This document shows, in pieces, positions 2,133 through 64,000 of a stretch of DNA of 64,000 nucleotides. Under the pieces are notes generated by a model. The model was given only the letters and a program-made list of their open reading frames with translations, was not told the origin of the DNA and did not search any database. Source of the DNA: Escherichia coli O127:H6 str. E2348/69. GTDB lineage: Bacteria; Pseudomonadota; Gammaproteobacteria; Enterobacterales; Enterobacteriaceae. The DNA lies in NCBI RefSeq assembly GCF_000026545.1, contig NC_011601.1. One strand, 5' to 3'. The position numbers were made by a program, and so were the translations under genes. The stretch's first letter is position 1; each line of letters starts with the position of its first letter.

Positions 2133-2141
2133 GGAGCGGAT

Positions 2142-3746: not shown

Positions 3747-3764
3747 GCCCCCTGCGAAGGGGGC
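3747..3764. terminator. GC-rich hairpin (gccccctgcgaagggggc) between convergent ulaF and yjfY, flanked by A/T runs; likely bidirectional intrinsic terminator
   Basis: Perfect 7-bp stem with 4-nt loop, preceded by tttttcaaaaaaa. Confidence 0.6.
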
Positions 3765-3804
3765 AAAGCAAACTATGGCAATGTTTCGTTGGTTATACCT
3801 GGTG

Positions 3805-6727: not shown

Positions 6728-6740
6728 AAGGAAATTAATT

Positions 6741-8150: not shown

Positions 8151-9428
8151 TTAGCTTGTCGCTAACTGTACTTGTGGTTCTTCGTCTTTAACTTTGATAA
8201 GCATCCACAGCGCAATGGCGCCAATAATGTCAAAGAAAGCCAGGGCAATAAAGAACGGCGCGAAGCCAATAATGTGAACGAATGCCCCGATAAACAGGTT
8301 GAAAATCAACTGACCGCTCCATGCACAGGCTCCTGCCATACCCACAGCGGTAGCTACTTCGTCTTTTTTGAATAGGTCACCGCCCAGAGTTGCTGCAACA
8401 GTAGAAAGACATTGATGCGAGAATGCGCCAATGCTAATCAGTAATACGGCGATGTAGGGATTTTCGACAATACTCACCAGACCAATCGTCATCATAATGA
8501 CGGCTGCAATAGTGAAGGTAATTCTTCGTGAGTTAATTAAACTCACGCCGCGATCGTGGAAGAACTTCGCGACAAAACCACTGGCTAAACAGCCGAGATC
8601 GCCCAGCAGGAAAGGCAGCCAGACGAACATGGCAATTTCTTTCAGGCTAAAATGCAGCGTTTCGACGAAGAAAATCGGTACCCAGAAGTTAATGGTTCCC
8701 CATGCCGGGTCAGCGAGAAAACGCGCGATGCCAATCCCCCAGAAATTACGTTGGCTGAGGATATGCTTGATTGACGTTTTTTCTTTCTTATCTGTTTTAA
8801 GATGCTGTTCTTGCCCAGACTCAATATAGTGGCGCTCTTCATCAGAAAGGCGTTTAGCATCTTTTGGATCTTTATAACAAAAGAACCAAAATAAAGCCGC
8901 GAGTAAAGCAAGGCTACCTGAGACAATAAACGCAAATTGCCAGCTATGAAACATAATGCACCAGGCAATCAACGGTGGAGCAAGCATCGCGCCGAGTGAG
9001 GTGCCCATATTGAAAACACCTGTCGCCACGCCACGCTCTTTTGCCGGGAACCATGTTGATGCGGTTTTTACACCCGCAGGAATTGCCGATGCTTCGCTGA
9101 AACCCATCAGGGCGCGCATAAATGCCAGACCTGACCATGTTCCTGTCAAGGCATGCCCCATTGTCGCCAGGCCCCAGATTGCGGCACATATCGCAAAACT
9201 TAACTTCAGACCCACGGTATCAATAAAGAAGCCCATTATCGGTTGCCCCAATGTATAGGCCAACTGGAATGCACTGACAATCCATGAATATTGTTCTTTG
9301 GTTATTCCGGTTGTCTCCATAATCGTTGGAGCCGCAATACCTAACGCCGTTCTGTCCAGATAATTGATTACAGTGATAAAGCATACGAGGGCAATCATAT
9401 GCCATCGATAATTCTTTATTTTATTCAT
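8151..9428 (-). CDS. MFS transporter, anion:cation symporter (ExuT/GudP-like) family; probable organic-acid importer
   Basis: 425-aa ORF, about 12 predicted TM segments, N-terminal ...YLDRTALGIAAP... typical of hexuronate/aldarate-type MFS permeases. Confidence 0.75.
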   Translation of the reverse strand: MNKIKNYRWHMIALVCFITVINYLDRTALGIAAPTIMETTGITKEQYSWIVSAFQLAYTLGQPIMGFFIDTVGLKLSFAICAAIWGLATMGHALTGTWSGLAFMRALMGFSEASAIPAGVKTASTWFPAKERGVATGVFNMGTSLGAMLAPPLIAWCIMFHSWQFAFIVSGSLALLAALFWFFCYKDPKDAKRLSDEERHYIESGQEQHLKTDKKEKTSIKHILSQRNFWGIGIARFLADPAWGTINFWVPIFFVETLHFSLKEIAMFVWLPFLLGDLGCLASGFVAKFFHDRGVSLINSRRITFTIAAVIMMTIGLVSIVENPYIAVLLISIGAFSHQCLSTVAATLGGDLFKKDEVATAVGMAGACAWSGQLIFNLFIGAFVHIIGFAPFFIALAFFDIIGAIALWMLIKVKDEEPQVQLATS

Positions 9429-9520
9429 TTTTAAACCTTTTAATTATATTAATAAACCCTGGTTATTGGTATTTCCATGTAATAGGCAATAAAAATCAGG
9501 TACAGAGGAAATATTGAAAA

Positions 9521-11593
9521 TTATTGTGTGTAAATGTCTCCCTTTAAAAAGTCTGGCCAGTTTTTTTCAAAGTAAATACCGTTAATACACGGTTGAATAC
9601 GTAAAGACTTTACTTCGGTAATAAAAGAACCTTGCGAATATTGAATTGTTAATTTGTGATTTTTGTCTTCAGCGAGTTCAGAGCGAAAACGCCATTCTTC
9701 TTTTGCGCCGCGACGAGTTTGTGGTAGGCATTTGCCTTGTGGATCAATAACCATACGCGCCCCACGGCTACCACCACCAGCATCAATATAATGCGTTAAT
9801 TGTGTTAATACCGCGGCAGAAGTCAGCGCCATATGCCGCCACATAAACAGCTCGGCAACTTCACCCACATGTTTGATTGCCAATCCATGCCGTTGCACAA
9901 ATTCACTCAATAGCAGGGCATCACGAGTGGCGCGTCGGACTTTATCGGCATGGCAAATAAATCCCGCATGGTCAGACATTCGTGCCTGAATTTTTTCTCT
10001 CACAACCGACAACGGCATCCCGGTCCCGTTATCGTGCGCCTGAGTAATGATCTCTCTTATAGAAGCCAGTGCCGGAGCTGCCAGCTGTGCAATATCTCCA
10101 TCAATATTCCGCTTTTGCGTGCAACCAATAAAGCGCGCCAGACGAACAGCAAAAACCTGCCCGGCATTCAACGCCGCGCCGCCAGGTCGGGTGACGCCGT
10201 GTGTGCCAGCAACTTCCCCCACCGCAAAACAACCGGGCAGAGATGTTTGTCCCCAGATATCGACTTCAATGCCGCCATTCATGTGCTGATTATTCATGGC
10301 AAACTGCAATGGCTGCGTGATGAGATCGTAACCGTGCATCTTATACAGCGAGATAGACAGAGGATTCATTCGTTGCAGGCGTTCGATGGGCGATGGTGCC
10401 AGAGCGTCGTTATTTTCCAGATACGTGCGAACGTCGTCGTCCAGTCGATCTAATGAGAACGGCAGGTCACCCGGCACAGGTTCAGGATTGCGATTGAAAT
10501 CCATAAATACCTGACGCCCTGATTGCTGCTCTTGCGCCACCGCCATATCTAACAAGCTGGAGCCAAAATCCATTACCCGCGTGGCGTGGAATGGCCACTG
10601 ATAGCCTTTACGGAAGATGTTTGAAGCCAACTCCTGGGTGGTGCGATAGTAATCTGCGAGGAAGTTATACTCGTTGCCCCCAGCATCCACGGAATAGATA
10701 TATGGGATCACCTGTACATAGGTGCCGGACAAATTCCACGGAAACGTGCTGCGCGGTGTGCCGATACCAAACTGGCTTTCAGTCAGATTCGTTAACGTCA
10801 GACCTTCCTCCAGCGCCAGCCCCAGCGAGCCGAAACATTTGTGTGGATACACACTGTCGCGATAAAGCTCGCCAGGCCCGCCTGTTGCCAGTACCACATT
10901 GGGTGCAGTCACAATTGCCAGCCCCCATGGGTTATGGGCGCGATGACCGGTCGCGAGGATTGCCCCCGCCACACGGTCTTCACCGTTTTCGTCACGCTGA
11001 TGCAGCAGTTTAATCACTGTTGCACTGGTCAACATTGGGATAGCAAGACGCTGTACTTCTTCCAGCAGCACTTTCACCATTAACCTTGAGGTACGCGGCC
11101 CACACGAGGTTGCACGCCCGGCTTCGTCGTGGTCGGTTTGATAACGAAGAATCGCGCCATAGCGATCTTCCGGTAATTCCAGACCAAGATATTGCAACCC
11201 GCCAAGAGTGTGCAGAGAACCTACCGCTTCAACATAAGCGGTGTCGTGATCCATCGCCCCACCGCTCGCCAGTGCCTCTGCCAGTTTGGCGAAGTTGTCG
11301 CCGTTGCCCGCGGTAGCGGCGGTAAACAGTGTTTGTTTATCAGAGCCAGAACATGCCGACGTCCCCATATATAACCCGGCGGTGGCGATTAACACATTTT
11401 GCTGGCGGCGTTTAAGTTCCACAGCTGCACGCAGCCCGGCTGCACCACTGCCGACTACCAGGGCATCTGTTTTCCAGAGTGGGTAATCAACACCGTCTAC
11501 CGTGACAACCCATGCGGGGTCTGCCTGTGCAAAACCCTTTGGGAAAGTAACGTGCGTCAGCGCATCAAGGATGGTGTCATCAAGCTGACTCAT
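9521..11593 (-). CDS. FAD-binding oxidoreductase, fumarate reductase/succinate dehydrogenase flavoprotein-like (690 aa)
   Basis: N-terminal dinucleotide-binding motif DALVVGSGAAGLRAAVEL; large size; ATGA overlap with upstream CoA-transferase gene. Confidence 0.65.
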   Translation of the reverse strand: MSQLDDTILDALTHVTFPKGFAQADPAWVVTVDGVDYPLWKTDALVVGSGAAGLRAAVELKRRQQNVLIATAGLYMGTSACSGSDKQTLFTAATAGNGDNFAKLAEALASGGAMDHDTAYVEAVGSLHTLGGLQYLGLELPEDRYGAILRYQTDHDEAGRATSCGPRTSRLMVKVLLEEVQRLAIPMLTSATVIKLLHQRDENGEDRVAGAILATGHRAHNPWGLAIVTAPNVVLATGGPGELYRDSVYPHKCFGSLGLALEEGLTLTNLTESQFGIGTPRSTFPWNLSGTYVQVIPYIYSVDAGGNEYNFLADYYRTTQELASNIFRKGYQWPFHATRVMDFGSSLLDMAVAQEQQSGRQVFMDFNRNPEPVPGDLPFSLDRLDDDVRTYLENNDALAPSPIERLQRMNPLSISLYKMHGYDLITQPLQFAMNNQHMNGGIEVDIWGQTSLPGCFAVGEVAGTHGVTRPGGAALNAGQVFAVRLARFIGCTQKRNIDGDIAQLAAPALASIREIITQAHDNGTGMPLSVVREKIQARMSDHAGFICHADKVRRATRDALLLSEFVQRHGLAIKHVGEVAELFMWRHMALTSAAVLTQLTHYIDAGGGSRGARMVIDPQGKCLPQTRRGAKEEWRFRSELAEDKNHKLTIQYSQGSFITEVKSLRIQPCINGIYFEKNWPDFLKGDIYTQ

Positions 11594-13131
11594 GCATCCT
11601 CCATCGGCGTAAACAGGCTGCTTTCCATCAGACGTGGGTGCCTGATAATCGGACGGAAGGCCATGAATGGCAGAATGTCGCGCTCAATCTCTACGCCAGG
11701 GGCGATCTCAATTAATTCAACGCCTTCTGCCGTTAACTGGAATACCGCACGTTCGGTGATATACAGCACTTCCTGACCGCTTTGCTGTGCGTAGGCGGCG
11801 CTAAAGGTGATTTTTTCCACCAGGGCAACCAATTTAGGGATTTGACCTGACTGGGCGATATGCAAGCCATCTGGCGTTACATCAATCTTGCTGCCTTTGG
11901 CGTCGAACGTACCGCAAAACACCACTTTACGGGCGTTTTGTGCAATTTCGAGAAATCCGCCGGGGCCAATGAGATTGCCATTAAGATGGGATACGTTGAC
12001 GTTACCGTACCGATCCATCTCTCCCATGCCGAGGAAGGTGATATCGATACCGCCGCCACTGTAGAATTCGAATTGATCGAGTGATGGAATAATGGCATCG
12101 GCGTTACGGGCGCAGCCGAACAGAGCATCATCCAGCATCATGCCGTTATGTACACCCTGTTCTACACTCAGCCACAAACTTTGATAAGGCACGCCTTCGC
12201 GCAGCGCAACCCCAGGAATACCGCCGGGAATACCAAAGCCAAAGTTGGTTGAAGCGCCTGCCACCAGTTCCCGCGCTGCCCGACGGGCAATCAGGCGACG
12301 CACCGGATGACTAACCAGTTCAATAGCGTCGTTAGAACTTAGACGGCGATGTTGACCGCTGATGGTCAGGTCGTAACCGCCAAGATAGGTTTGCGGTTGT
12401 TCGCGGTGCTCAACGATGCCATCGACCAGAATTCCTGGTAGCTTGACCCGACGTGGTTCAATGGTACCTGCTTCCAGCACATCGCGGACCTGTACGAACA
12501 CTTTGCCGCCGCTGTTGTGTGCTGCCAGCGCCATCGAATAGCTATCCATATAAATCGCTTCTTCTTCGAGGCTAACGTTGCCTCGTGGATCGGCATAAGT
12601 GCCACGCAAAATCGCGTAATCCACTTTGAAAGGGCGATAACGAAGTTTGGTCTCACCGTCGATTTCAATCAGTTCTACCAGGTCGTCGGTAGTGCATTCA
12701 TTCGACTTACCGCCGCCATTGCGTGGATCAACAAACGATCCCAGCCCAACGTGGGTAAAAAGCCCCGGACGTCCGGCACCGATCTCCCGCAGCAGTGCCT
12801 GAATTACGCCACCAGGGAAACAGTAGGCTTCAATAGCATTGCTTTTCACCAGTTCCTGCATCTTGGGCGACCAGGTAAAATGTCCGGCAATAATGCGTTT
12901 GAGCATTTCGGCGTGAGCAAAACGGTTAGTGCCTTTGCTGTCGCGATCGCCAATACCCAGCGAGTGGATTAATGTCAGATCGCGCGGGTGTCCGGTTTGC
13001 AGGAAACGCGCTTCAATGGCGGCCAGAATATGGTCAGCTTCCACCATACCGCCGCCGTTACCGCTAATGGCAATGGTTGCGCCGTCCTGAATTTGCGCCG
13101 CCAGTGTCTCGGCGGTTGATAACTTACGCAT
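11590..13131 (-). CDS. Family I CoA-transferase (acetyl-CoA hydrolase/transferase, fused alpha/beta, YdiF/Pct-like)
   Basis: 513-aa ORF MRKLSTAETLAAQIQDGATIAISGNGGG... with the glycine-rich CoA-transferase N-terminus and duplicated domain architecture. Confidence 0.7.
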   Translation of the reverse strand: MRKLSTAETLAAQIQDGATIAISGNGGGMVEADHILAAIEARFLQTGHPRDLTLIHSLGIGDRDSKGTNRFAHAEMLKRIIAGHFTWSPKMQELVKSNAIEAYCFPGGVIQALLREIGAGRPGLFTHVGLGSFVDPRNGGGKSNECTTDDLVELIEIDGETKLRYRPFKVDYAILRGTYADPRGNVSLEEEAIYMDSYSMALAAHNSGGKVFVQVRDVLEAGTIEPRRVKLPGILVDGIVEHREQPQTYLGGYDLTISGQHRRLSSNDAIELVSHPVRRLIARRAARELVAGASTNFGFGIPGGIPGVALREGVPYQSLWLSVEQGVHNGMMLDDALFGCARNADAIIPSLDQFEFYSGGGIDITFLGMGEMDRYGNVNVSHLNGNLIGPGGFLEIAQNARKVVFCGTFDAKGSKIDVTPDGLHIAQSGQIPKLVALVEKITFSAAYAQQSGQEVLYITERAVFQLTAEGVELIEIAPGVEIERDILPFMAFRPIIRHPRLMESSLFTPMEDA

Positions 13132-13140
13132 ACAATTTCC

Positions 13141-13923
13141 TTATTGATTGTGGAAGCTCACGCCGGCTTTTTCGGCAAATGCGTGCGTCGCCTGTTGGCA
13201 ATCCTGAGTGGCGGACATTAATCCAGCCAGTAACTGGTGGGAGTAATCGGCGTGTTTATTTTCCAGCGCCAGAATCAGTTGCTTAATATGTGCCAGTGCC
13301 ACCGGACCACATTTTTCCAGCTGCGCTAACTGGTTCACCATCCAGCTTTCCACCTGTTCTTTTTCTACCACTTCATCAATTAAATTCGCTGTCTGAGCTT
13401 CCTGCGCCGTCAGGCGTTTACCCAGCATCAGCATCTGGCGACCGACCACCGGGCCAACCTGATTAAGCACGCGTTCAATGCCCATCCAGCCAGGCACCAT
13501 GCCGAGCATCACTTCCGGGTTAGAGAATTTCGCGCCGGGGCGAGCGATACGAATATCACAGCACAAGGCGAGTTCAATCCCACCGCCAATGGTATGACCG
13601 TTGAGATTTGCAACCGTTAATTGGGGTAAATTGCGCAGGCGATTAAAAACCTCGTTACCGCGTTTAATCCATTTTCTGCCCATATCTAATGGCGAATAGG
13701 CCGACCACGATTTAATATCGCCGCCCGCACAAAAGAATTTATCGCCGGTTGCCGTTAATTCGACTAATCGTAATGTGGTGTCGTTTTCAATTTCATTTAA
13801 ATAATGGTCGAGAGATTCGATCATTTCTTCATTAATAGCATGACATTTATCTTCACGGTTCAATGTCAGGCGGCAAGAAGCCGCCGCTCTGCTGAACAGA
13901 ACGGGTTGGTCATTCATGATCAT
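13141..13923 (-). CDS. Enoyl-CoA hydratase/isomerase (crotonase) family protein
   Basis: 260-aa ORF; ...DKFFCAGGDIKSW... and ...NGHTIGGGIELALCCDIRIA... match the crotonase oxyanion-hole segments. Confidence 0.75.
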   Translation of the reverse strand: MIMNDQPVLFSRAAASCRLTLNREDKCHAINEEMIESLDHYLNEIENDTTLRLVELTATGDKFFCAGGDIKSWSAYSPLDMGRKWIKRGNEVFNRLRNLPQLTVANLNGHTIGGGIELALCCDIRIARPGAKFSNPEVMLGMVPGWMGIERVLNQVGPVVGRQMLMLGKRLTAQEAQTANLIDEVVEKEQVESWMVNQLAQLEKCGPVALAHIKQLILALENKHADYSHQLLAGLMSATQDCQQATHAFAEKAGVSFHNQ

Positions 13924-13926
13924 TCC

Positions 13927-14769
13927 TTAACAATAATGTGCGATGCGATCGACGCTAATATCCAGCGTGCTGTTAATATCTTTCTGCCACCAGTACGGTG
14001 AGAATATTTCCAGTTCAATAGCGCCATTAAATCCGGCGTTTTCAACCAGCCGACGAATTGACGGAATATTGATGACACCATCTCCCGGCATTCCACGGTC
14101 ATTGACCAGATCGGTGGTCGGCACTAACCAGTCGGAAACATGAAACGCGAGGATGCGTTTTCCGGCACGCAGGATCTGACTGGCGAGATCCGGGTCCCAC
14201 CAGACATGGTAGACATCTACCGCCACGCCGAGGCCAAATTCGCCATCGGGATCGAGTTCATCACACCAGTCCAGCGCCTGACGTAACGTGCACAGACAAG
14301 AACGATCGGCAGCAGTCATCGGGTGCAGTGGCTCCAGTGCAATTGGCACGCCGACCTCTTTCGAATGTGGCAGCAACTGGCGAATCCCTTGTTTCACCTG
14401 TTCCCGTGCTTCGTACAGATCTTTTGTTCCCATTGGCAGACCGCCAACCACCTGCATATAACAGGCGGCGTTCAGTACAGCGGCGTCGTCCAGCGCCCGG
14501 CGGTTATCGTCAATCGCCAGTTTGCGCTCCGCCAGCGTCGGTGCGGTGTAGTAGGTGCTACGGCACAAACCGGAAACGTTCATGTTACTGGCAGCAAGCT
14601 GGCGGGCGATTTGCTGGAGATCTTCACTCTGCAACTCCCTGCGCCAGGGGGCAATCGCGCCAATACCGCGTGCGGCGCAGGCATCAATAATGGCGGGTAG
14701 CGGCGTTTTATAGCCCAGTGTCGCGGTATTGATACTGAATAAATCCGGGCGTTGTAACAGATCTCTCAT
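13927..14769 (-). CDS. Sugar-phosphate isomerase/epimerase (xylose isomerase-like TIM barrel) family protein, possibly a dehydratase
   Basis: 280-aa ORF with ...LAFHVSDW... and ...IELEIFS... typical of the AP-endonuclease-2/xylose-isomerase-like fold. Confidence 0.6.
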   Translation of the reverse strand: MRDLLQRPDLFSINTATLGYKTPLPAIIDACAARGIGAIAPWRRELQSEDLQQIARQLAASNMNVSGLCRSTYYTAPTLAERKLAIDDNRRALDDAAVLNAACYMQVVGGLPMGTKDLYEAREQVKQGIRQLLPHSKEVGVPIALEPLHPMTAADRSCLCTLRQALDWCDELDPDGEFGLGVAVDVYHVWWDPDLASQILRAGKRILAFHVSDWLVPTTDLVNDRGMPGDGVINIPSIRRLVENAGFNGAIELEIFSPYWWQKDINSTLDISVDRIAHYC

Positions 14770-14778
14770 GATTCAGCC

Positions 14779-15570
14779 TCAGAAGCGCGGCATACTTAAG
14801 CCGCCGTCGATGGCGACCGCCTGACCACAGGTGTAAATCAGTTTACCTTCCGCCATCGCGCGGACAGTGGAAGCAATATCAGCCGGATAACCCCAACGTC
14901 CCCACGGCACCAGACCTTTGGCAATCAGTTCGTCGTAATAGGCCGTTGCCGGAATAGTCATATCGGTTTTGATGAGACCAGGACGCACTTCATATACGCC
15001 AATTTGTTCATTACAAAGGCGAGCAGCAAACAGACGAGCAGCGGCAGAGACGGCAGTTTTGGCAATGGTATATTCGCCGCGATTCATCGCCAGCATGATG
15101 GCGTTGATGGAACTGACAAAAATAATCGAGCGGTGCGGCAGTTCTGCTTCCGGTTTCGGCTGTGCCAGTAAGCGCTTACTGAATGCCTGAGCAAGGAAGA
15201 ACGGTGCGCGGGTGTTAATGGCAATATTTTGGTCGAAGCTGTCTGGTTCGAGGTCGAGAAGGTCACCGCGTTTTTTCACTGAAATGCCTGCGTTGTTGAG
15301 CAGGCAGTCCAGACGTCCCCACTGGTTTTGCGCTGCGTCGAGCATCTCTTCATGCAGGGAGAGATCGCCCACATCAGCAGGGAAGCAAATCACTTCCACG
15401 CCTTCCGCCAGACATTCTTGTTGTGTGGCATGTAATTTTTCTACGCTATCGGCATCCGGACGATCATTAATCAGCAGATTAAATCCGCCACGCGCAAGCT
15501 CCAGCGCACAGCCTTTTCCAATACCACGTGCGGCTCCGGTAATCACGGCAACAGGACGAGTGGATTTCAT
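14779..15570 (-). CDS. Short-chain dehydrogenase/reductase (SDR)
   Basis: 263-aa ORF; cofactor motif VAVITGAARGIGKG, NNAG, and catalytic Y-x3-K (EYTIAKTAV). Confidence 0.8.
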   Translation of the reverse strand: MKSTRPVAVITGAARGIGKGCALELARGGFNLLINDRPDADSVEKLHATQQECLAEGVEVICFPADVGDLSLHEEMLDAAQNQWGRLDCLLNNAGISVKKRGDLLDLEPDSFDQNIAINTRAPFFLAQAFSKRLLAQPKPEAELPHRSIIFVSSINAIMLAMNRGEYTIAKTAVSAAARLFAARLCNEQIGVYEVRPGLIKTDMTIPATAYYDELIAKGLVPWGRWGYPADIASTVRAMAEGKLIYTCGQAVAIDGGLSMPRF

Positions 15571-15639
15571 ACAATAGCTCTCTTTTTTTTGAATTTTGTT
15601 TCCTTAGTGATGATTAGCTTGCGACTGGAGGGTAAAAAG

Positions 15640-15661
15640 ATCAACCATCTAGTTGGTTGAT
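15640..15661. promoter_or_regulatory. Inverted repeat ATCAACCA-N6-TGGTTGAT in the divergent SDR/TetR intergenic region; candidate TetR operator
   Basis: 8-bp perfect arms read directly; about 70 bp upstream of the SDR start and about 120 bp upstream of the TetR start. Confidence 0.45.
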
Positions 15662-15783
15662 ATGCGATGGCGATCACAGGACATTTGATAACCTGATGAA
15701 AGTACAAGTTTTTGCCCTTTTTTCTGAAGCTGAAATCAAATCAGGTTATGATAGTCACCACGAAGAGGTCGTGGGGAAGCGTT

Positions 15784-16431
15784 ATGTATCTTGATACCAG
15801 CAACGTACAGAGCCTGAAAGAAAAGCTGCTGTTATGCGCGGTTAATGAATTTGCCGAATATGGTTACGAAGGGGCCAGAGTCGATAATATCGTCAAGGCC
15901 GCGGGGTGCAGTAAACAGACGGTTTATCACCACTTTGGTAATAAAGAAAATTTATTTATCGAAGTACTGGAATATACCTGGAACGATATTCGACAAAAAG
16001 AAAAGGCCCTTGATTTCTCAGATCTTCCGCCACAGAAAGCCATTGAGAAAATAATCGATTTTACATGGGATTATTATATTTCTAATCCCTGGTTTTTAAA
16101 AATTGTGCATAGTGAAAATCAAAGTAAGGGTGTGCATTATGCAAAATCACAGCGTCTTTTAGAAATTAACCATGCGCACTTGCAGTTAATGGAATCCTTA
16201 TTGGATGAAGGGAAGAAACAAAATATTTTTAAGCCAGATATCGACCCATTGCAGGTGAATATTAATATTGCTGCGCTTGGGGGATATTATTTGATCAACC
16301 AGCATACGCTTGGCCTGGTTTATCACATCAGTATGGTTTCACCGCAGGCACTGGAAGCCAGACGTAAGGTCATCAAAGAGACAATCCTTAGCTGGCTTTT
16401 GGTTGACCCTTCATCTACCGCGCGCGAATAA
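15784..16431 (+). CDS. TetR/AcrR-family transcriptional regulator
   Basis: Internal ATG of ORF 15712-16431; N-terminal ...[44 protein letters not shown]... is a canonical TetR HTH. Confidence 0.8.
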
Positions 16432-17919: not shown

Positions 17920-19469
17920 CTGTCTCTTATACACAAATCCCCACCCGGGGATTTGTGATGTCTGTCAGTCTGCTTTAGGGGGACTCTTTCCATCCGGTAG
18001 TTTCCTTCCTCCCCGGCAGCGATTTTTTGAACTTTTTCCTCACCTGTTGATCTTCTCTTATATTTCATTTTCTTCGGGTCTGTTATGGTACTTTCTGATT
18101 GTTATTCATGGGCTAACGAGCAGTTTGGACATGCCCGTCTCGGTGATCCGCGTCGTACACGACGCCTTGTGTCACTGGCCTCTTCTCTCGCTCAGCATGC
18201 AGGTCTTTCTATTGTGAAATCATCCCAGTCCACTGCTCAGGTTGAAGGTGCGTACCGCCTGATACGTAACCCGTCTGTGTCCCCGCAAGCCATTGCCGAA
18301 GCCGGATTTACCGCCACTGTAAGGGCATGTGAGGCTCATCCGCTGCTCCTCGCGCTGGAAGACACCACCACCATTAACTTCAGTCACAGTACGGCATCTG
18401 ATGACCTGGGGAATACCACCACTAACCCGAAGACGCGCGGGCTGCTGGCTCACTCTGTCCTGATGTACGCCCCCGACAGCGCCCTGCCAGTCGGTCTTAT
18501 CGAACAGCAGCGCTGGAGTCGTGCCACGGACACCTACGGTGTTAAGCACCAGCGAAAAGAACGTCCCTATGAAGAAAAAGAAAGTTACCGCTGGCAGCAG
18601 GCTTCGGAGCGCATGGCCGAACGGCTGGGGGAGATACAGAAACGGGTAATCACTGTCTGTGACCGGGAAGCGGATATCTGGCATTACCTGCATTATAAAG
18701 TCAGCCACGGGCAGCGCTTCGTGGTGCGTGCAGCACAGAATCGCCGGCTGGAAGAAGCACCCGGCAAGCTCTTCGAACTGCCGGAAGTCCTGGCAACCGC
18801 GGGAAGCCACACGCTGAATGTGATGCAAAAAGGCGGGCGGGCAGCCCGCCAGGCCCGGATGTTCATCAGTTACAGCGAAGTCAGCATAAAAAATCCCGAC
18901 AACAGCGGCCAGGCGCTCCCGCTCACGTATGTCTGTTGCCGGGAGCAGGCAGAGGACGGCGCCTGCTGGCATCTGCTGACGTCAGAAAAAGTGGCGAGTG
19001 CCGCCGATGCGCGACGTATCGTCAGCCATTACGAGCGACGCTGGCTGATAGAGGAATACCACAAGGCGTGGAAAAGTGGTGGTACATGTGTGGAATCGCT
19101 GTGAATGCAGACCCGGGATAACCTCGAGCGCATGGTGGTTATCAAGGCGTTTATCGCGGTGCGGGTGCTGGGCCTGCGGCAGGGCGGTATCAGTGAAGAA
19201 ACACAAAATGACAGCTGTGAGAAAATACTGACGCCGACAGAGTGGAAACTGCTGTGGGTTAAGCTGGAAGGAAAACCGCTTCCGTCACAGATGCCGACAC
19301 TGAAATGGGCCTGTCTGAAACTGGCGAAACTGGGGCGATGGCATGACAGCAAACGCACCGGTCGCCCCGGTTGGGTAGTCATGTGGGATGGCTGGTTCAG
19401 ACTTCAGGATATGGTTGAGGGTTACCTGGTGATGAAGTCTCTTGATCAGGAGATCTGATCAAGAGACAG
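17920..19469 (+). mobile_element. IS50/Tn5-like insertion sequence (IS4 family) with diverged transposase
   Basis: Left end CTGTCTCTTATACACAAAT (2 mismatches to the Tn5 outside end as I recall it); right end is the exact reverse complement of the Tn5 inside end CTGTCTCTTGATCAGATCT; flanked by direct repeat cgaaccag; internal Tn5-Tnp-like ORF. Confidence 0.85.
18085..19458 (+). pseudogene. Tn5-like transposase interrupted by an in-frame TGA at 19102-19104 (ORFs 18085-19104 and 19105-19458, same frame)
   Basis: N-fragment LGDPRRTRRLV...EGAYRLIRNP...LALEDTT...CDREADI...RRWLIEEYHKAWKSG closely resembles Tn5 Tnp including the DDE positions; C-fragment DNLERMVV...AVRVLGLRQ... continues the alignment after the stop. 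Confidence 0.7.
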
Positions 19470-31013: not shown

Positions 31014-36565
<5,552 letters not shown>

Positions 36566-36567
36566 CA

Positions 36568-36909
36568 ATGCGAATATTTGTCTACGGCAGTTTACGCCAC
36601 AAACAAGGCAACAGTCACTGGATGACCAATGCCCAGTTACTGGGCGATTTCAGTATTGATAACTACCAGTTGTATAGCCTGGGCCACTATCCAGGCGCAG
36701 TACCGGGGAACGGAACAGTACACGGTGAAGTTTATCGTATTGACAACGCCACGCTGGCCGAACTTGATGCCTTGCGCACCAGGGGCGGTGAATACGCGCG
36801 CCAGTTGATTCAGACGCCGTACGGGAGTGCATGGATGTACGTTTATCAACGACCCGTCGATGGATTAAAGCTAATTGAAAGCGGCGACTGGTTAGACAGG
36901 GATAAGTAA
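36568..36909 (+). CDS. ytfP: Gamma-glutamylcyclotransferase-family protein
   Basis: 113-aa product MRIFVYGSLRHKQGNSHWM... Confidence 0.9.
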   Translation: MRIFVYGSLRHKQGNSHWMTNAQLLGDFSIDNYQLYSLGHYPGAVPGNGTVHGEVYRIDNATLAELDALRTRGGEYARQLIQTPYGSAWMYVYQRPVDGLKLIESGDWLDRDK

Positions 36910-36920
36910 TAATAAAAGCA

Positions 36921-36938
36921 CGCCACCTTCGGGTGGCG
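36921..36938 (+). terminator. Intrinsic terminator after ytfP (cgccaccttcgggtggcg + T-run)
   Basis: 7-bp stem, 4-nt loop, followed by ttgtttta. Confidence 0.75.
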
Positions 36939-37288
36939 TTGTTTTATGCGATGTATCTCGCGATTCTTTTTGTAACTTTCCCATCTTTTGCTTTTCTCTC
37001 CGGGCCGCTTTCCATATCTGCAATCGCATAAAAAACTCTGCTGGCGTTAACAAATGTGCAGGGGTAAAACGGGGGCACGCTTTGAACGGTGAGTATGAGT
37101 GAGGCCGGCTAACTTCCAGCAAGTGGCTATGAACAGCAAAATGGTGGTCGAGCTTAGCTTGTTCTTACCGTTCAAGTCTTTCAACTGCTGAAAATAATAA
37201 TAGTGGAGTAGAGAGTTTATAAATTGCGGGCATAAAAAAACCCTTACTAACCGAAGCCCGGTGTTCAGGGTTATTGCGCCAGAAGAAC

Positions 37289-37819
37289 TTATTTATTCTT
37301 GGCGCGCTCGAAGGAAGCAACGATTTCAGCTTTAGCGGCTTCTGCGTTTTCCCAGCCTTCAACTTTAACCCACTTGCCTTTTTCGAGGTCTTTGTAGTGC
37401 TCGAAGAAGTGAGCGATCTGTGCTTTCAGCAGTTCAGGCAGATCGTTAACGTCTTTAATGTGATCGTATTCTTTGCTCAGCTTGCTGTGCGGAACCGCAA
37501 TCAGTTTCGCATCTTCACCGGCTTCGTCGGTCATTTTCAGTACGCCAACCGGACGGCAGCGGATCACAGAACCCGGCTGCAGCGGGTACGGAGTCGGGAC
37601 CAGTACGTCAACCGGGTCACCGTCCAGAGACAGGGTGTGGTTGATGTAACCGTAGTTGCACGGATAGAACATCGCGGTGGACATGAAGCGGTCAACGAAC
37701 AGTGCGCCGCTCTCTTTGTCGATTTCGTATTTGATCGGATCTGCGTTAGCCGGGATCTCAATAACAACGTAGATGTCTTCCGGCAGATCTTTACCCGCAG
37801 GGACGTTGAGTAAGCTCAT
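37289..37819 (-). CDS. ppa: Inorganic pyrophosphatase
   Basis: 176-aa product [46 protein letters not shown]... Confidence 0.97.
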
Positions 37820-38128
37820 GTCTGTTTCCTTTAAAAATATGTGGCAAACAAGTGCCGAGTATTATAGCCAACTCGCGCCGAATGTCTTCGCTTGTTTTCG
37901 TCTTCATTTTCCTTTTTCGCCAGTTTTAAGACGGTATACAGAGCAGGAAAATCCATAACCGTAGCCGCATTTTTCATAGTGAGATGAAAGCGATTACAAA
38001 CTTGTGATTAACGTTTTATTTACTTTTTTGAAGTGTGATGTAACGCAATCCGTTACATAACGAATTGTCTATAGTTTTTTCGCGAACATCTTTTCACCAA
38101 TAATAATTACCCCGACGAGGACAACCCT

Positions 38129-39085
38129 ATGTGGAAACGCTTACTTGTAGTCTCTGCAGTCTCGGCAGCCATGTCGTCTATGGCGTTGGCCGCTCCATTA
38201 ACCGTAGGATTTTCGCAGGTCGGATCGGAATCCGGCTGGCGCGCCGCAGAAACCAATGTGGCGAAAAGTGAAGCCGAAAAACGCGGGATTACGTTGAAAA
38301 TTGCCGATGGTCAGCAAAAGCAGGAAAACCAGATTAAAGCGGTACGTTCCTTCGTCGCGCAAGGGGTGGATGCGATCTTTATCGCTCCAGTGGTAGCGAC
38401 CGGTTGGGAGCCGGTAGTAAAAGAGGCGAAAGATGCCGAAATCCCGGTCTTCTTGCTTGACCGTTCCATCGATGTGAAAGACAAATCTCTCTATATGACC
38501 ACCGTTACTGCCGACAACATCCTCGAAGGTAAGTTGATCGGTGACTGGCTGGTGAAAGAGGTTAACGGCAAACCATGTAACGTGGTTGAGTTACAGGGCA
38601 CCGTTGGGGCCAGCGTCGCCATTGACCGTAAGAAAGGCTTTGCCGAAGCCATAAAGAATGCGCCAAATATCAAAATTATCCGCTCGCAGTCAGGTGACTT
38701 CACCCGTAGTAAAGGCAAAGAGGTCATGGAGAGCTTTATCAAAGCGGAAAACAACGGCAAAAACATCTGCATGGTTTACGCCCATAACGACGACATGGTG
38801 ATTGGTGCAATTCAGGCAATTAAAGAAGCGGGCCTGAAACCGGGCAAAGATATCCTGACAGGCTCTATCGACGGCGTGCCGGACATCTACAAAGCGATGA
38901 TTGATGGCGAAGCGAACGCCAGCGTTGAACTGACGCCGAACATGGCAGGTCCTGCTTTCGATGCGCTGGAGAAATACAAAAAAGACGGCACCATGCCTGA
39001 AAAGCTGACGTTAACCAAATCCACCCTTTATCTGCCTGATACCGCAAAAGAAGAGTTAGAGAAGAAGAAAAATATGGGGTATTGA
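38129..39085 (+). CDS. ytfQ: ABC transporter periplasmic sugar-binding protein (galactofuranose)
   Basis: 318-aa ORF with signal peptide MWKRLLVVSAVSAAMSSMALA. Confidence 0.9.
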   Translation: MWKRLLVVSAVSAAMSSMALAAPLTVGFSQVGSESGWRAAETNVAKSEAEKRGITLKIADGQQKQENQIKAVRSFVAQGVDAIFIAPVVATGWEPVVKEAKDAEIPVFLLDRSIDVKDKSLYMTTVTADNILEGKLIGDWLVKEVNGKPCNVVELQGTVGASVAIDRKKGFAEAIKNAPNIKIIRSQSGDFTRSKGKEVMESFIKAENNGKNICMVYAHNDDMVIGAIQAIKEAGLKPGKDILTGSIDGVPDIYKAMIDGEANASVELTPNMAGPAFDALEKYKKDGTMPEKLTLTKSTLYLPDTAKEELEKKKNMGY

Positions 39086-39094
39086 GGGTTGCTA

Positions 39095-39200
39095 TGCCTG
39101 ATGCCGATTCGTAGGCCGGATAAGGCGCTCGCGCCGCATCCGGCGGTTGTGCGCTGAAGCCTGATGCGACGCTTACCGCGTCTTATCATGCCTACTGGGA
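39095..39200. repeat. REP element cluster between ytfQ and ytfR
   Basis: gcctgatgccgattcgtaggccggataaggcgctcgcgccgcatccggc... palindromic units. Confidence 0.7.
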
Positions 39201-39224
39201 GCACGCTTTACACCGGGGGAAACC

Positions 39225-40727
39225 ATGACGACCGACCAACACCAGGAAATCCTCCGCACCGAAGGATTAAGTAAATTTTTCCCCGGTGTCAAAGCGTTAG
39301 ACAACGTTGATTTCAGCCTGCGCCGTGGCGAAATCATGGCGCTGCTCGGTGAAAACGGGGCGGGAAAATCGACGCTAATCAAAGCATTAACCGGTGTATA
39401 CCACGCCGATCGCGGCACCATCTGGCTGGAAGGCCAGGCTATCTCACCGAAAAACACCGCCCACGCACAACAACTCGGCATCGGCACCGTCTATCAGGAA
39501 GTCAACCTGCTACCCAATATGTCGGTCGCTGATAATCTATTCATAGGTCGCGAACCCGAACGTTTCGGCCTTCTACGCCGTAAAGAGATGGAAAAGCGCG
39601 CCACCGAACTGATGGCATCTTACGGTTTCTCCCTCGACGTGCGCGAACCGCTCAACCGCTTTTCAGTCGCGATGCAGCAAATCGTCGCCATTTGCCGGGC
39701 TATCGATCTCTCCGCCAAAGTGCTGATCCTCGATGAACCCACCGCCAGTCTCGACACTCAGGAAGTAGAGTTACTGTTTGGCCTGATGCGTCAACTTCGC
39801 GATCGCGGCGTCAGTCTGATCTTCGTCACTCATTTTCTCGATCAGGTTTATCAGGTCAGCGATCGGATCACCGTCTTACGTAACGGCAGTTTCGTAGGCT
39901 GTCGGGAAACGCGCGAGCTACCGCAGATCGAACTGGTAAAAATGATGCTGGGGCGTGAACTGGACACCCACGCGCTTCAGCGTGCCGGGAGAACATTGCT
40001 GAGCGACAAACCTGTTGCCGCGTTCAAAAATTACGGCACAAAAGGAACGATCGCGCCGTTTGATCTCGAAGTACGCCCCGGCGAGATCGTTGGCCTGGCG
40101 GGCTTGCTGGGATCAGGACGTACCGAAACCGCCGAAGTGATCTTCGGTATCAAACCTGCTGATAGCGGCACGGCGTTGATCAAAGGCAAACCGCAAACGC
40201 TACGCTCGCCACATCAGGCTTCGGTACTGGGCATCGGCTTCTGCCCGGAAGACAGGAAAACCGATGGCATTATCGCCGCCGCCTCGGTGCGGGAAAATAT
40301 CATCCTCGCTCTCCAGGCCCAGCGCGGCTGGCTACGACCTATTTCCCGCAAAGAGCAGCAAGAGATTGCCGAACGCTTTATTCGCCAGCTTGGCATTCGC
40401 ACACCTTCCACCGAACAACCGATTGAATTTCTCTCCGGCGGCAATCAGCAAAAAGTGTTGCTTTCACGTTGGCTACTGACCCGACCGCAATTTCTGATTC
40501 TCGACGAGCCAACGCGCGGAATTGATGTTGGTGCGCATGCCGAGATCATCCGCCTAATTGAAACGCTGTGCGCCGATGGGCTGGCGCTGCTGGTGATCTC
40601 CTCCGAACTGGAAGAGCTGGTGGGCTATGCCGACCGGGTGATTATCATGCGCGATCGCAAACAGGTAGCGGAGATCCCACTGGCAGAGCTTTCCGTTCCG
40701 GCGATCATGAACGCCATTGCGGCGTAA
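39225..40727 (+). CDS. ytfR: ABC transporter ATP-binding protein (duplicated ATPase domains)
   Basis: 500-aa ORF with two Walker A motifs (GENGAGKST; GLLGSGRTE) and signature LSGGNQQKV. Confidence 0.9.
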   Translation: MTTDQHQEILRTEGLSKFFPGVKALDNVDFSLRRGEIMALLGENGAGKSTLIKALTGVYHADRGTIWLEGQAISPKNTAHAQQLGIGTVYQEVNLLPNMSVADNLFIGREPERFGLLRRKEMEKRATELMASYGFSLDVREPLNRFSVAMQQIVAICRAIDLSAKVLILDEPTASLDTQEVELLFGLMRQLRDRGVSLIFVTHFLDQVYQVSDRITVLRNGSFVGCRETRELPQIELVKMMLGRELDTHALQRAGRTLLSDKPVAAFKNYGTKGTIAPFDLEVRPGEIVGLAGLLGSGRTETAEVIFGIKPADSGTALIKGKPQTLRSPHQASVLGIGFCPEDRKTDGIIAAASVRENIILALQAQRGWLRPISRKEQQEIAERFIRQLGIRTPSTEQPIEFLSGGNQQKVLLSRWLLTRPQFLILDEPTRGIDVGAHAEIIRLIETLCADGLALLVISSELEELVGYADRVIIMRDRKQVAEIPLAELSVPAIMNAIAA

Positions 40728-40737
40728 GGAGAACAGT

Positions 40738-41763
40738 GTGATGCCTCAATCTCTCCCGGACACTACGCCGCCGAAAAGGCGTTTTCGCTGGCCAACAGGA
40801 ATGCCGCAGCTGGCGGCACTGTTGCTGGTGCTGCTGGTTGATAGCCTGGTGGCCCCACATTTCTGGCAGGTGGTGCTTCAGGATGGGCGTTTGTTCGGTA
40901 GCCCTATCGACATTCTTAACCGTGCGGCCCCCGTTGCGCTACTGGCGATTGGCATGACGCTGGTTATCGCCACCGGTGGGATTGATCTCTCCGTAGGGGC
41001 GGTGATGGCTATCGCCGGAGCCACAACGGCTGCGATGACGGTCGCGGGATTCAGCCTGCCAATTGTTTTGTTAAGCGCCCTGGGCACTGGCATCCTGGCG
41101 GGATTGTGGAACGGCATACTGGTAGCGATCCTCAAAATTCAGCCGTTTGTCGCCACCCTGATCTTGATGGTCGCCGGGCGCGGCGTGGCGCAACTGATCA
41201 CCTCCGGACAGATCGTCACATTTAACTCACCGGATCTCTCCTGGTTTGGCAGTGGATCGCTGTTGTTCCTGCCAACGCCAGTCATTATTGCGGTGCTGAC
41301 GCTTCTCCTGTTCTGGCTGTTGACCCGCAAAACGGCACTGGGGATGTTTATCGAAGCCGTTGGTATCAACATTCGGGCGGCAAAAAATGCCGGGGTAAAC
41401 ACGCGGATCATCGTCATGCTCACCTACGTTTTGAGCGGGCTATGTGCGGCGATTGCGGGCATTATCGTGGCGGCGGATATTCGCGGTGCCGATGCCAATA
41501 ACGCCGGGTTATGGCTGGAGCTGGACGCCATTCTTGCAGTGGTGATTGGCGGCGGATCGCTGATGGGCGGGCGCTTTAACCTGCTGCTTTCGGTGGTGGG
41601 GGCGCTGATTATTCAGGGAATGAACACCGGAATTTTGCTTTCTGGCTTTCCGCCGGAGATGAACCAGGTCGTAAAAGCGGTGGTGGTGCTTTGCGTGCTG
41701 ATTGTTCAGTCGCAACGCTTTATCAGTCTGATTAAAGGGGGACGTAACCGTGATAAAACGTAA
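40738..41763 (+). CDS. ytfT: ABC transporter permease
   Basis: Hydrophobic ORF 40717-41763; start most likely the GTG at 40738 or ATG at 40741 (about 341 aa). Confidence 0.85.
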   Translation: MMPQSLPDTTPPKRRFRWPTGMPQLAALLLVLLVDSLVAPHFWQVVLQDGRLFGSPIDILNRAAPVALLAIGMTLVIATGGIDLSVGAVMAIAGATTAAMTVAGFSLPIVLLSALGTGILAGLWNGILVAILKIQPFVATLILMVAGRGVAQLITSGQIVTFNSPDLSWFGSGSLLFLPTPVIIAVLTLLLFWLLTRKTALGMFIEAVGINIRAAKNAGVNTRIIVMLTYVLSGLCAAIAGIIVAADIRGADANNAGLWLELDAILAVVIGGGSLMGGRFNLLLSVVGALIIQGMNTGILLSGFPPEMNQVVKAVVVLCVLIVQSQRFISLIKGGRNRDKT

Positions 41764-42745
41764 TTTGCCACTGATGATCACCATCGGCGTCTTTGTGTTG
41801 GGTTATATCTACTGTCTGACCCAGTTTCCCGGTTTTGCTTCCACAAGAGTGATCTGCAATATCCTGACCGATAATGCCTTTCTTGGGATAATCGCCGTTG
41901 GTATGACCTTTGTGATCCTCTCCGGTGGGATCGATCTCTCCGTCGGTTCGGTGATCGCCTTTACTGGCGTGTTTCTGGCAAAAGTGATTGGCGATTTCGG
42001 CCTCTCACCGCTGCTGGCGTTTCCGCTGGTGCTGGTGATGGGCTGTGCCTTCGGCGCATTTATGGGACTTCTGATCGACGCCCTGAAGATCCCGGCGTTT
42101 ATCATTACTTTGGCAGGAATGTTCTTTTTGCGTGGCGTCAGCTATCTCGTTTCGGAAGAGTCGATCCCGATAAACCATCCTGTTTATGACACGCTCTCAA
42201 GCCTTGCGTGGAAAATCCCTGGCGGCGGTCGCTTAAGTGCGATGGGACTGCTGATGCTGGCGGTGGTGGTTATCGGCATATTCCTCGCGCATCGTACCCG
42301 TTTTGGTAATCAGGTATACGCCATTGGCGGCAACGCAACGTCGGCAAACCTGATGGGGATTTCCACTCGCAGCACCACTATTCGCATTTATATGCTCTCC
42401 ACCGGACTGGCAACGCTGGCGGGGATTGTCTTCTCGATTTATACCCAGGCCGGATATGCACTGGCGGGCGTAGGTGTGGAACTGGATGCTATCGCCTCAG
42501 TGGTAATTGGCGGTACGCTTTTGAGTGGTGGCGTTGGAACGGTATTAGGGACGCTTTTTGGCGTGGCGATTCAGGGACTGATTCAGACTTACATAAACTT
42601 TGATGGCACGCTGAGTTCCTGGTGGACGAAAATCGCCATCGGTATTTTGTTGTTTATTTTTATAGCATTACAGCGTGGATTAACGGTGCTGTGGGAGAAT
42701 CGTCAGAGTTCGCCAGTGACAAGAGTCAACATTGCGCAGCGATAA
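41750..42745 (+). CDS. yjfF: ABC transporter permease
   Basis: 331-aa hydrophobic ORF overlapping the ytfT 3' end. Confidence 0.9.
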   Translation: MIKRNLPLMITIGVFVLGYIYCLTQFPGFASTRVICNILTDNAFLGIIAVGMTFVILSGGIDLSVGSVIAFTGVFLAKVIGDFGLSPLLAFPLVLVMGCAFGAFMGLLIDALKIPAFIITLAGMFFLRGVSYLVSEESIPINHPVYDTLSSLAWKIPGGGRLSAMGLLMLAVVVIGIFLAHRTRFGNQVYAIGGNATSANLMGISTRSTTIRIYMLSTGLATLAGIVFSIYTQAGYALAGVGVELDAIASVVIGGTLLSGGVGTVLGTLFGVAIQGLIQTYINFDGTLSSWWTKIAIGILLFIFIALQRGLTVLWENRQSSPVTRVNIAQR

Positions 42746-63624: not shown

Positions 63625-64000
63625 ATGAGCAAAATATCAGATTTGAATTATTCTCAACACATTACATTAGCCGACAATTTTAAACAAAAAAATAAAGCCT
63701 TAGATACCTGGTATGTGGGAATGAATGATTTTTCCCGAATTGCCGGGGGGCAGAATAGCAGAAGCAATATTCTTTCTCCTGGAGCATTTTTGGAGTTTTT
63801 GGCAAAGATATTTACCCTGGGTTATGTGGATTTTAGCAAACGCTCCAACGAAGCGGGTAGAAAGATGATGACTCATATTGAGTCCTCATCTTATTCTAAA
63901 GATACTGATGGCAATGAAAAAATGAAGTTTTACATGAATAATCCTGAAGGGGAGCGAGCGGATTTATCTAAGGTGAAGATAGAATTACACTTGCCTCAGC
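63625..64000 (+). CDS. yjgL: Protein of unknown function, N-terminal part (continues beyond window)
   Basis: ATG at 63625 preceded by AAGGAG; open to window end (MSKISDLNYSQHITLADNFKQKNKALDTWYVGMNDF...). Confidence 0.7.
   Translation, partial: MSKISDLNYSQHITLADNFKQKNKALDTWYVGMNDFSRIAGGQNSRSNILSPGAFLEFLAKIFTLGYVDFSKRSNEAGRKMMTHIESSSYSKDTDGNEKMKFYMNNPEGERADLSKVKIELHLPQ

Follow-up and report, generated by a model that had tools for sequence, protein, structure and literature searches.

The stretch of DNA analysed here (the window) comprises 64,000 nucleotides of Escherichia coli O127:H6 str. E2348/69 (NC_011601.1). It includes an intergenic interval of 379 bp (36910-37288) between ytfP and ppa, beyond which tamB ends at 36565 and ytfQ starts at 38129. 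The counterpart of this interval in K-12 is 886 bp long and holds chpS (252 nt, 83 aa) and chpB (351 nt, 116 aa); the K-12 order ytfP-chpS-chpB-ppa has been tabulated previously (PMC5120126). An alignment of ten sequences underlies the anatomy of the interval given below, together with its two boundary genes.

36568-36909, plus strand: ytfP (gamma-glutamylcyclotransferase family), left boundary; 113-aa ORF, RefSeq WP_001219160.1
36920-36946, terminator-like on both strands: intrinsic terminator hairpin of ytfP (ACGCCACC-TTCG-GGTGGCGT) with a T-run, from a terminator scan
36947-37071, plus strand: remnant of the leader upstream of chpS, assigned to the chpSB cassette; 84-86% identical to the K-12 ytfP-chpS spacer
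37071-37072: junction of deletion 1, ~303 bp, from alignments and coordinates
37072-37206, plus strand: degenerate relic of chpB, nt ~10-145 (ChpB residues ~4-48); 75-80% identity, with in-frame stops
37202-37207: junction of deletion 2, which took 67 codons in frame (201 bp, chpB nt 146-346), from alignment and coordinates
37207-37229, plus strand: last codon of chpB, its stop and 3' flank, from alignment
37234-37271, minus strand: stem-loop with a downstream U7, likely the terminator of ppa, from its fold and its presence in both alleles
37289-37819, minus strand: ppa (inorganic diphosphatase), right boundary; 176-aa ORF and annotation

Coding content of the interval

The 1,252-bp ytfP-to-ppa stretch of the window is 100% identical to E2348/69, an EPEC strain (NZ_CP059840.2). 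The YtfP protein WP_001219160.1 is identical across K-12, E2348/69, ATCC 8739, HH45 and M-17.

A sequence-only reading of the window had described the interval as about 380 bp long and devoid of any ORF for a MazF-like toxin or an AbrB-like antitoxin, and had stated that K-12 carries chpS-chpB between ytfP and ppa. Our analysis bears out both statements, and the alignment to K-12 that the reading had proposed placed an interval of 886 bp carrying both genes opposite the 379 bp of the window. Six ORFs of at least 25 aa overlap the interval, and the four longest (76, 65, 45 and 44 aa) had no Pfam match at E<=1. A stop-bridged translation of the chpB relic had no Pfam match either, and the K-12 ChpB control matched PemK_toxin at E 1e-25. 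A tblastn search with ChpS over window positions 32000-42000 gave no match (100% for the K-12 control). When the scar, as we call the remnant, was used as a blastn query against the whole E2348/69 chromosome, a single place was found, the scar itself; the same query cross-detects K-12-type chpB at E 1e-8. E2348/69 thus has no further copy resembling chpB down to a nucleotide identity of ~80%. The practical consequence is that this strain is without the ChpB endoribonuclease and without ChpS.

Anatomy of the scar

The terminator hairpin of ytfP is kept in every genus examined, including those with minimal intervals, and in other strains it is the point at which esiB is inserted. It is followed by the leader remnant, which ends at the conserved GGGGTAAAACG (37061-37071). 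The K-12 ytfP-chpS spacer can be aligned with its counterpart at the Lelliottia chpSB locus for 202 bp and with the relic locus of C. sedlakii for 92 bp, and minimal intervals of 100-170 bp match the leader region at the ytfP terminator hairpin only. Because the leader aligns with the Lelliottia and C. sedlakii loci and is missing from the minimal intervals, we regard it as part of the chpSB cassette.

Deletion 1 took the promoter/operator of chpS, the whole of chpS and ~9-12 nt from the start of chpB. In the alignment, the entire gene for the AbrB/SpoVT-type antitoxin, which overlaps the start of the toxin gene, lies inside this deletion, as does the operator/promoter block (K-12 spacer nt ~178-209), which is missing from the window; the same block is conserved at the chpSB loci of Pseudocitrobacter, Kluyvera, RIT691 and E. 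asburiae. The two K-12 break points each carry the motif GGTAAA, at a spacing of 305 bp, and microhomology is therefore possible, although the motif fits the deletion to within 2 nt only.

What follows the junction is the 5' part of chpB. Read in the chpB frame (from 37071), the relic gives LPASGYEQQNGGRA, a stop and LVLTVQVFQLL, as compared with DPASGHEQQGAGRPALVLSVQAFNQLG in ChpB; the chpB-frame reading of the block has also been given as PASGYEQQNGGRA, a stop and LVLTVQVFQLL against the same ChpB segment. No intact ORF for a toxin of the PemK/MazF fold (~116 aa) is present in the interval, where chpB nt ~10-145 remains, with stops. Deletion 2 is bounded by direct repeats, two copies of TGGTGG, which in the intact gene of K-12 end at chpB nt 145 and 346, and beyond it the 3' end of chpB reads AGTAGAGAGTTTATAAATTGCGG in the window and AATAAGGTGTGTTTATTTATCGCGG in K-12. 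The likely ppa terminator is kept in K-12 and in the remaining Escherichia loci of the alignment. It is assigned by form and position, because the energy of its fold (z-score of only -0.45) is no better than that of shuffles.

The derivation of this block from chpB is supported by several comparisons. Pairwise alignment to K-12 left a block of ~156 nt "unique" to the window, which resembles the start of chpB. Local alignment of 37081-37187 with chpB nt 19-129 gave 75% identity and a score of 78, as compared with a mean of 17 (sd 2.2, maximum 27) for 1000 shuffles. In tblastn, ChpB matched over residues 19-48 at 57% identity (E 6e-5), and blastn of the scar block against a 28-Gb database matched 73 nt of annotated chpB at 80% identity in ~3,100 genomes (E 1e-8). 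The block thus belongs to chpSB both by its position between ytfP and ppa and by its nucleotide homology to chpB. It has the attributes of a pseudogene relic, namely homology at the orthologous site, a disrupted frame and deletion of the partner gene chpS. We conclude that the ytfP-ppa interval is very probably the scar of a decayed chpS-chpB module.

The scar resembles chpS-chpB (chpBI-chpBK) of K-12, a type II system of the MazEF/PemIK family, in occupying the same slot, in its leader (84-86%) and in keeping the chpB stop region. It differs in having no antitoxin gene, no promoter/operator, no toxin ORF and no PemK_toxin match, and is therefore a pseudogene scar rather than a module. The leader, the 5' fragment and the 3' end of chpB together indicate that ~280 of the 379 bp derive from the cassette. 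Consequently, the absence of chpSB claimed in the sequence-only reading holds for the module, but not for its sequence, a chpB-derived fragment of which is still in place.

Two alleles in E. coli

Among 5,426 complete E. coli genomes, intact chpSB was found in 3,098 (57%) and the scar block in 2,323 (43%), both at a coverage of at least 80%. The two are nearly perfectly exclusive (5,424 places in 5,422 genomes). Scars with 95-100% identity to that of the window occur in 678 genomes, ST95 among them, and a class with ~92.7% identity, which includes ATCC 8739 and E110019, in 1,620. The esiB gene is present in 188 of the 5,426 genomes, so that the states of the locus are ~57% chpSB, ~39% scar only and 3.5% esiB. 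Strains in the esiB state also carry the chpB relic; in M-17, for example, the ytfP hairpin is directly followed by esiB, a second, diverged copy of the hairpin and then the full scar.

Other states of the locus are rare, and two strains exemplify them. Strain N50 carries a licT/GH1/PTS operon at this site and has no scar; its bgl-like insert showed no nucleotide similarity to the inserts of 1.6-3.5 kb found in Citrobacter, Enterobacter and others. HH45 (NZ_CP116411.1, 4261303-4261816) contains an apparent G/C-rich filler and a hybrid chpB fragment, which RefSeq flags as a partial PemK/MazF toxin. This odd recombinant is the exception among the matches listed, for which the RefSeq annotation of the scar is otherwise "none".

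The variability of this locus has been documented before. According to Pastorello et al. (2013, mBio, PMC3735183), the ytfP-ppa locus exists in three states, with chpBS in 53%, esiB in 15% and neither in 32% of 47 complete genomes, and the absence of chpSB at the locus was already known. The window corresponds to the "neither" state as described there. The "short direct repeats with partial inverted symmetry" which that paper reports on either side of esiB correspond to the ytfP terminator hairpin (36920-36939 here). In the accessible part of the article the third state is described as lacking both genes, and neither a chpB relic nor its sharing with E. albertii is mentioned. No description of the chpB remnant was found in the searchable literature or in RefSeq annotations; coverage of subscription papers was incomplete, and an earlier description may exist. 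The scar is an undescribed but unsurprising small addition to a published presence/absence polymorphism.

The sequence-only reading had taken the locus to illustrate a strain-specific toxin-antitoxin repertoire. It is correct that the content varies between strains, but the dimorphism extends over the whole species (57% intact, 43% scar), the scar is common to E. albertii and a cryptic-clade Escherichia genome, and the three-state locus had been published (PMC3735183).

Relatives and age of the alleles

Related loci were collected from one genome per species, using YtfP as an anchor (80 loci), and screened by tblastn. The same slot contains orthologues of chpSB, with 63-78% identity at the amino-acid level, in Lelliottia, Enterobacter asburiae, two species of Pseudocitrobacter, Kluyvera and RIT691. 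C. sedlakii retains a relic of the ChpB C-terminus and E. cloacae a fragment of ChpS. Among the other relatives, many species have an interval of 100-170 bp, and some have 1.6-3.5 kb of unrelated DNA; the truly empty sites (100-170 bp) contain the two terminators only. Within Escherichia, intact chpSB is found in K-12, E. whittamii and the cryptic-lineage genomes L003, L005 and L007, and the same two junctions as in E2348/69 recur in ATCC 8739, the cryptic-clade genome L006 and the E. albertii type strain (L008). Both allele classes thus occur in more than one species, the scar in E. coli, L006 and E. albertii and the intact module in E. coli, E. whittamii, L003, L005 and L007, with one genome per non-coli species and introgression possible.

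Over 130 shared columns the scars differ by 31-35% from any intact Escherichia chpB (20-25% in the best-aligned core) and by 43-55% from chpB of other genera, which indicates that they descend from an Escherichia chpB; Escherichia and Enterobacter chpB are 28-31% apart. Neighbour joining united the scars in one clade (bootstrap 100%), which groups with Escherichia chpB and in which E. albertii branches first (92%); these supports are quoted for the scar clade only, as the deepest rooted nodes are unreliable (0.67%) after re-rooting. Decomposition of the distances assigned 0.40 substitutions per site to the scar branch (bootstrap 0.29-0.59) and 0.03 to the intact branch, a result based on 130 aligned sites and one genome per non-coli species, and including one poorly aligning stretch of ~25 nt, whose differences may have arisen in a few complex events and not as many separate substitutions.

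For comparison, half the distance at third codon positions of the flanking genes, which under-estimate the neutral rate, is 0.04 for E2348/69 and K-12, 0.15 for E. coli and E. albertii, and ~0.3 for Escherichia and Salmonella/Citrobacter. Third positions of the flanks differ by 8% between E2348/69 and K-12, and those of intact chpSB by 10-18% between Escherichia species, much like the neighbouring genes (7-28%). Since the scar branch exceeds the E. coli-E. albertii depth, the data point to an old two-allele polymorphism rather than to a strain-specific loss. It seems probable from these distances that the two alleles are older than the divergence of E. coli from E. albertii and have since been inherited side by side or exchanged.

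An appearance of vertical co-inheritance could also result from recombination between species. A gain of chpBS together with bdcAR and yjgH has been described for ST131 clade C in a preprint, and bdcAR and yjgH are genes within the same window. This gain indicates that replacement of alleles by long recombination tracts does occur, and the intact and scar alleles can be exchanged by homologous recombination through their conserved flanks.

Sequence drift and possible function of the scar

As far as the data show, the scar appears to be without function and to be drifting in a roughly neutral manner, as suggested by the lack of Rfam and Pfam matches and by its near-neutral divergence. The Rfam scan of 36800-37400 at E<=1 gave nothing in the interval (a sub-threshold match to an S15 leader, E 0.1, falls inside ppa). 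The promoter scan gave one sigma-70-like match on the minus strand (37223-37194), which is no excess over the 0.6 expected from shuffles. Divergence from scar to scar is 4-18%, as compared with 4-25% at third positions of the flanks; as it is not above the latter, there is no sign of constraint over these ~130 sites. No ORF is conserved among the scars, and their indels are lineage-specific (e.g. a 1-nt gap in ATCC 8739, L006 and E. albertii). The scars are mildly AT-enriched (43-51% GC as compared with 51.5-54.6%).

Origin of the scar

The best explanation of these observations, and in our judgement a highly likely one, is that the interval holds a MazEF-family type II chpS-chpB cassette which decayed through two deletions into an old allele with no function. 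The 201-bp in-frame deletion between the TGGTGG repeats removed ChpB residues ~49-115 and would have disarmed the toxin while ChpS was still expressed. The ~303-bp deletion, which took the promoter/operator, chpS and the start of chpB, would then have been harmless. We infer that the toxin was disabled first or simultaneously, because loss of the antitoxin alone would release an active RNase. The remainder comprises the upstream leader, ~135 nt of the chpB 5' region, with stops and small indels, and the chpB stop region.

A comparable case is the chromosomal ccdO157 toxin-antitoxin system, whose decay in E. coli was reportedly described by Mine et al. in Genetics in 2009. In both cases a type II module has a fixed chromosomal position, part of the strains have it intact while the rest have it inactivated or deleted, and inactivation of the toxin is expected to come before loss of the antitoxin. 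The chpSB scar differs in that it has a single origin, with fixed junctions, and is apparently older than the species, rather than being a set of many independent, recent inactivations.

Several other origins were considered. If the site had been empty from the beginning, with chpSB never present and the K-12-type strains gaining the cassette by insertion, this would agree with the frequent horizontal acquisition of toxin-antitoxin modules and with the many Enterobacteriaceae that have nothing between ytfP and ppa. However, true empty sites measure 100-170 bp and contain two terminators, as opposed to the 379 bp found here, in which the leader, the chpB fragment and the chpB stop region all stand in the correct order and orientation. 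The homology to chpB (score 78 against a shuffle maximum of 27; E 1e-8) refutes this explanation, the chance of which we consider close to nil. Alternatively, a K-12-like chpSB could have been deleted recently and in one lineage only, be it phylogroup B2 or E2348/69 itself. In favour of this, E2348/69, ST95, Nissle and LF82 (the latter two carrying esiB), which we take to belong to phylogroup B2, all have the scar at 97-100% identity. Such an event is nevertheless extremely improbable, given that the scar is 20-35% away from intact Escherichia chpB, as against 8% at third positions of the flanks (E2348/69 and K-12), and that the same junctions are found in ATCC 8739, the 1,620 genomes of the 92.7% type, the cryptic-clade genome and E. 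albertii. A recent import from B2 into other lineages is likewise contradicted by non-B2 and non-coli scars that lie 7-18% off the B2 scar.

The large distance between the scar and intact chpB might alternatively mean that an already divergent chpSB allele of another genus had arrived and then decayed. Orthologues at 63-78% identity do occupy the same slot in several genera, and the raw distance of 31-35% is as large as that between Escherichia and Enterobacter (28-31%). The scar is nevertheless closest to Escherichia chpB (31-35% as compared with 43-55%) and groups in the Escherichia clade, and nearly all of the excess falls on its own branch (0.40 against 0.03), as relaxed constraint predicts. 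With Escherichia chpB as the nearest relative, an origin from the chpB of another genus was rejected, and a foreign allele of this kind seems distinctly unlikely. We also regard it as very unlikely that the segment was retained for a new role, for example by encoding a small RNA, by spacing or insulating the convergent terminators of ytfP and ppa, or by acting as a regulatory site. This would explain its survival despite deletion bias, with junctions unchanged since before the E. coli-E. albertii split, and the sigma-70-like match on the minus strand (37223-37194) could be cited in its favour. Against it stand the lack of any Rfam match in the interval, a promoter count of 1 where 0.6 was expected, a divergence as high as the synonymous-like divergence of the neighbouring genes, differing indels with no conserved ORF, and the fact that an interval of 100-170 bp suffices in many genera. 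Decay of a resident chpS-chpB cassette is thus the reading that we retain.

A HipA-family module in the same window

A second toxin-antitoxin locus of the window, which the sequence-only reading had called HipBST-like, was also analysed.

6248-8008, plus strand: two-gene module of an HTH protein and a HipA-family kinase; HTH ORF of 159 aa, kinase gene split into ORFs of 86 and 340 aa

In Pfam the 159-aa ORF contains HTH_31 and the 340-aa ORF HipA_C, and RefSeq marks both module genes (6248-8008) as frameshifted pseudogenes. Strain AH21I008 has intact genes of 163 and 422 aa in DNA that is 99.9% identical, and its module differs from that of the window only by A7 to A6 near 6714 and G5 to G4 near 6987. 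The module, which is present in 1,046 of the 5,426 genomes, is the "hipA-2/xre-3" locus beside the rps genes (PMC7232551).

The arrangement in the window, with an HTH gene, a small ORF and an ORF for a HipA_C kinase, is like that of HipBST of E. coli O127:H6 (PMC6581861; PMC10627512). It is unlike HipBST in having no natively separate hipS and hipT and in a kinase that matches HipT weakly: the kinase matched HipT of E. coli O127:H6 (PDB 7AB3-5) only at E 1.5e-8 over ~105 residues (163-266), and the 86-aa ORF matched no PDB chain. The comparison to HipBST could therefore not be upheld, since the kinase is natively a single 422-aa gene, split here by the loss of one G from a run of five. This should serve as a caution, as the split hipA mimics HipBST by eye and yet results from a homopolymer frameshift. 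Either the two-gene hipA-family module at 6248-8008 is truly frameshifted or the frameshifts are homopolymer errors of the assembly. Given the chpSB scar and the frameshifted HTH and hipA-family genes, both toxin-antitoxin loci of the window would appear to have decayed in E2348/69.

Conclusions

To conclude, the ytfP-ppa interval of E2348/69 shows a presence/absence polymorphism of an ordinary kind, one that had been documented before and whose alleles appear to have an old history. For biology at large it carries little weight, as the absence of chpSB has been in print since 2013 and it is textbook knowledge that toxin-antitoxin repertoires are patchy. For annotation, a chpB pseudogene fragment goes unannotated in 2,323 complete genomes, judging from the annotation seen among the matches listed, in which HH45 is flagged.

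With regard to the evolution of toxin-antitoxin systems, the scar represents a loss rather than a failure to gain, and, with 201 bp of the toxin core lost in frame and the antitoxin gone, it offers an example of how a cell may safely rid itself of such a module. Moreover, the scar may be usable as a neutral marker of an old haplotype across Escherichia species, and it bears on the question of balancing selection on chromosomal modules. That such selection, rather than drift and recombination, maintains the 57:43 split is doubtful. The same low probability attaches to the reading that goes with it, in which the coexistence of the two alleles would go back beyond the radiation of Escherichia, with a scar branch at least about twice as deep as the E. 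coli-E. albertii split. The selection in question might be, for example, a phage-defence or anti-addiction benefit weighed against the cost of carrying a toxin. If true, the polymorphism would amount to a natural long-term experiment on the worth of a "housekeeping" chromosomal toxin-antitoxin module.

Leader haplotypes and probable recombination in the ytfP-ppa interval

The block upstream of chpS (the leader, window 36947-37071) was compared with its counterparts in loci L001, L003-L008 and L083. Strains of E. coli diverge here by up to 19% (E2348/69 versus K-12), yet the five E. coli strains examined share one and the same YtfP protein sequence. Leader haplotype does not predict whether chpSB is present or absent. 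The cryptic-lineage Escherichia locus L005 has a leader of the type associated with the scar (the decayed chpSB remnant), yet its chpSB is intact, and the leaders of the scar-bearing cryptic-clade locus L006 and the intact cryptic-lineage locus L007 are 4% apart. On the sequence comparison, this uncoupling of leader haplotype from chpSB state implies that recombination took place within the ytfP-ppa interval long ago.

A hybrid of the two allele types was found in one E. coli genome:

E. coli HH45 (locus L084), NZ_CP116411.1, 2198-2709: hybrid chpSB/scar allele

Its flanks are identical to the scar of the ATCC 8739 type, while chpB nucleotides ~13-125 are the same as in K-12 and are followed by the scar-type deletion 2 (the 201-bp in-frame loss within chpB). 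The position of chpS is occupied by ~130 nt of filler, composed almost entirely of G, C and A (ACCCACCCGCGCAGAACGGGGGGGGCCCCCC...). Either gene conversion left a patch in the HH45 allele, or the allele is an artefact of assembly.

The hipA-family module and other features of the window

Window 6248-8008, + strand: HTH gene and HipA-family toxin gene, both broken by single-base deletions
Window ~8151-16431: genes for a TetR regulator, 3-ketoacyl-ACP reductase, sugar-phosphate isomerase, enoyl-CoA hydratase, CoA transferase, FAD oxidoreductase and MFS transporter

The sequence-only reading had taken the first of these for a HipBST-like module. Comparison with the intact copies of strain AH21I008 showed that it is not HipBST: each of its two genes is broken by one homopolymer deletion (A7 to A6 near 6714, G5 to G4 near 6987), which gives it a three-gene appearance. 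These deletions may be genuine decay or may stem from a faulty assembly. Of 5,426 E. coli genomes, 1,046 carry the module; K-12 lacks it.

The seven genes of the adjoining ~8-kb block, located between ytfB and this module, are described in PMC7232551 as a fatty-acid metabolism cluster that is not present in K-12. In the RefSeq annotation of the identical sequence, an ISEc13 (IS4-like) transposase gene (window ~18085-19458) lies between cycA and fklB, and a hypothetical-protein pseudogene with a frameshift and an internal stop (window ~63625-64000) extends past the window end.

Insertions between ytfP and ppa

E. coli M-17 (locus L087), 1834-3868: esiB (secretory IgA-binding protein) insertion
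E. coli N50 (locus L088), 1-4178: licT / GH1 glycosidase / beta-glucoside PTS IIABC operon

In M-17, the ytfP terminator hairpin is followed directly by esiB, and then by a second, diverged copy of the hairpin and the full chpSB scar; therefore, strains with esiB carry the scar allele plus an extra insertion. The N50 operon adjoins ppa where the scar would be, and does not resemble the long ytfP-ppa inserts of the other genera at the nucleotide level.

Across 80 Enterobacteriaceae species (loci L009-L082), the interval ranged from 99 bp to ~3.9 kb, some loci holding inserts of 1.6-3.5 kb. Orthologues of chpSB were present in six non-Escherichia loci, representing five genera or lineages; a toxin fragment (ChpB residues 63-107) is left in C. 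sedlakii and an antitoxin fragment (ChpS residues 9-31) in E. cloacae. The ytfP-ppa interval is an insertion hotspot in Enterobacteriaceae.
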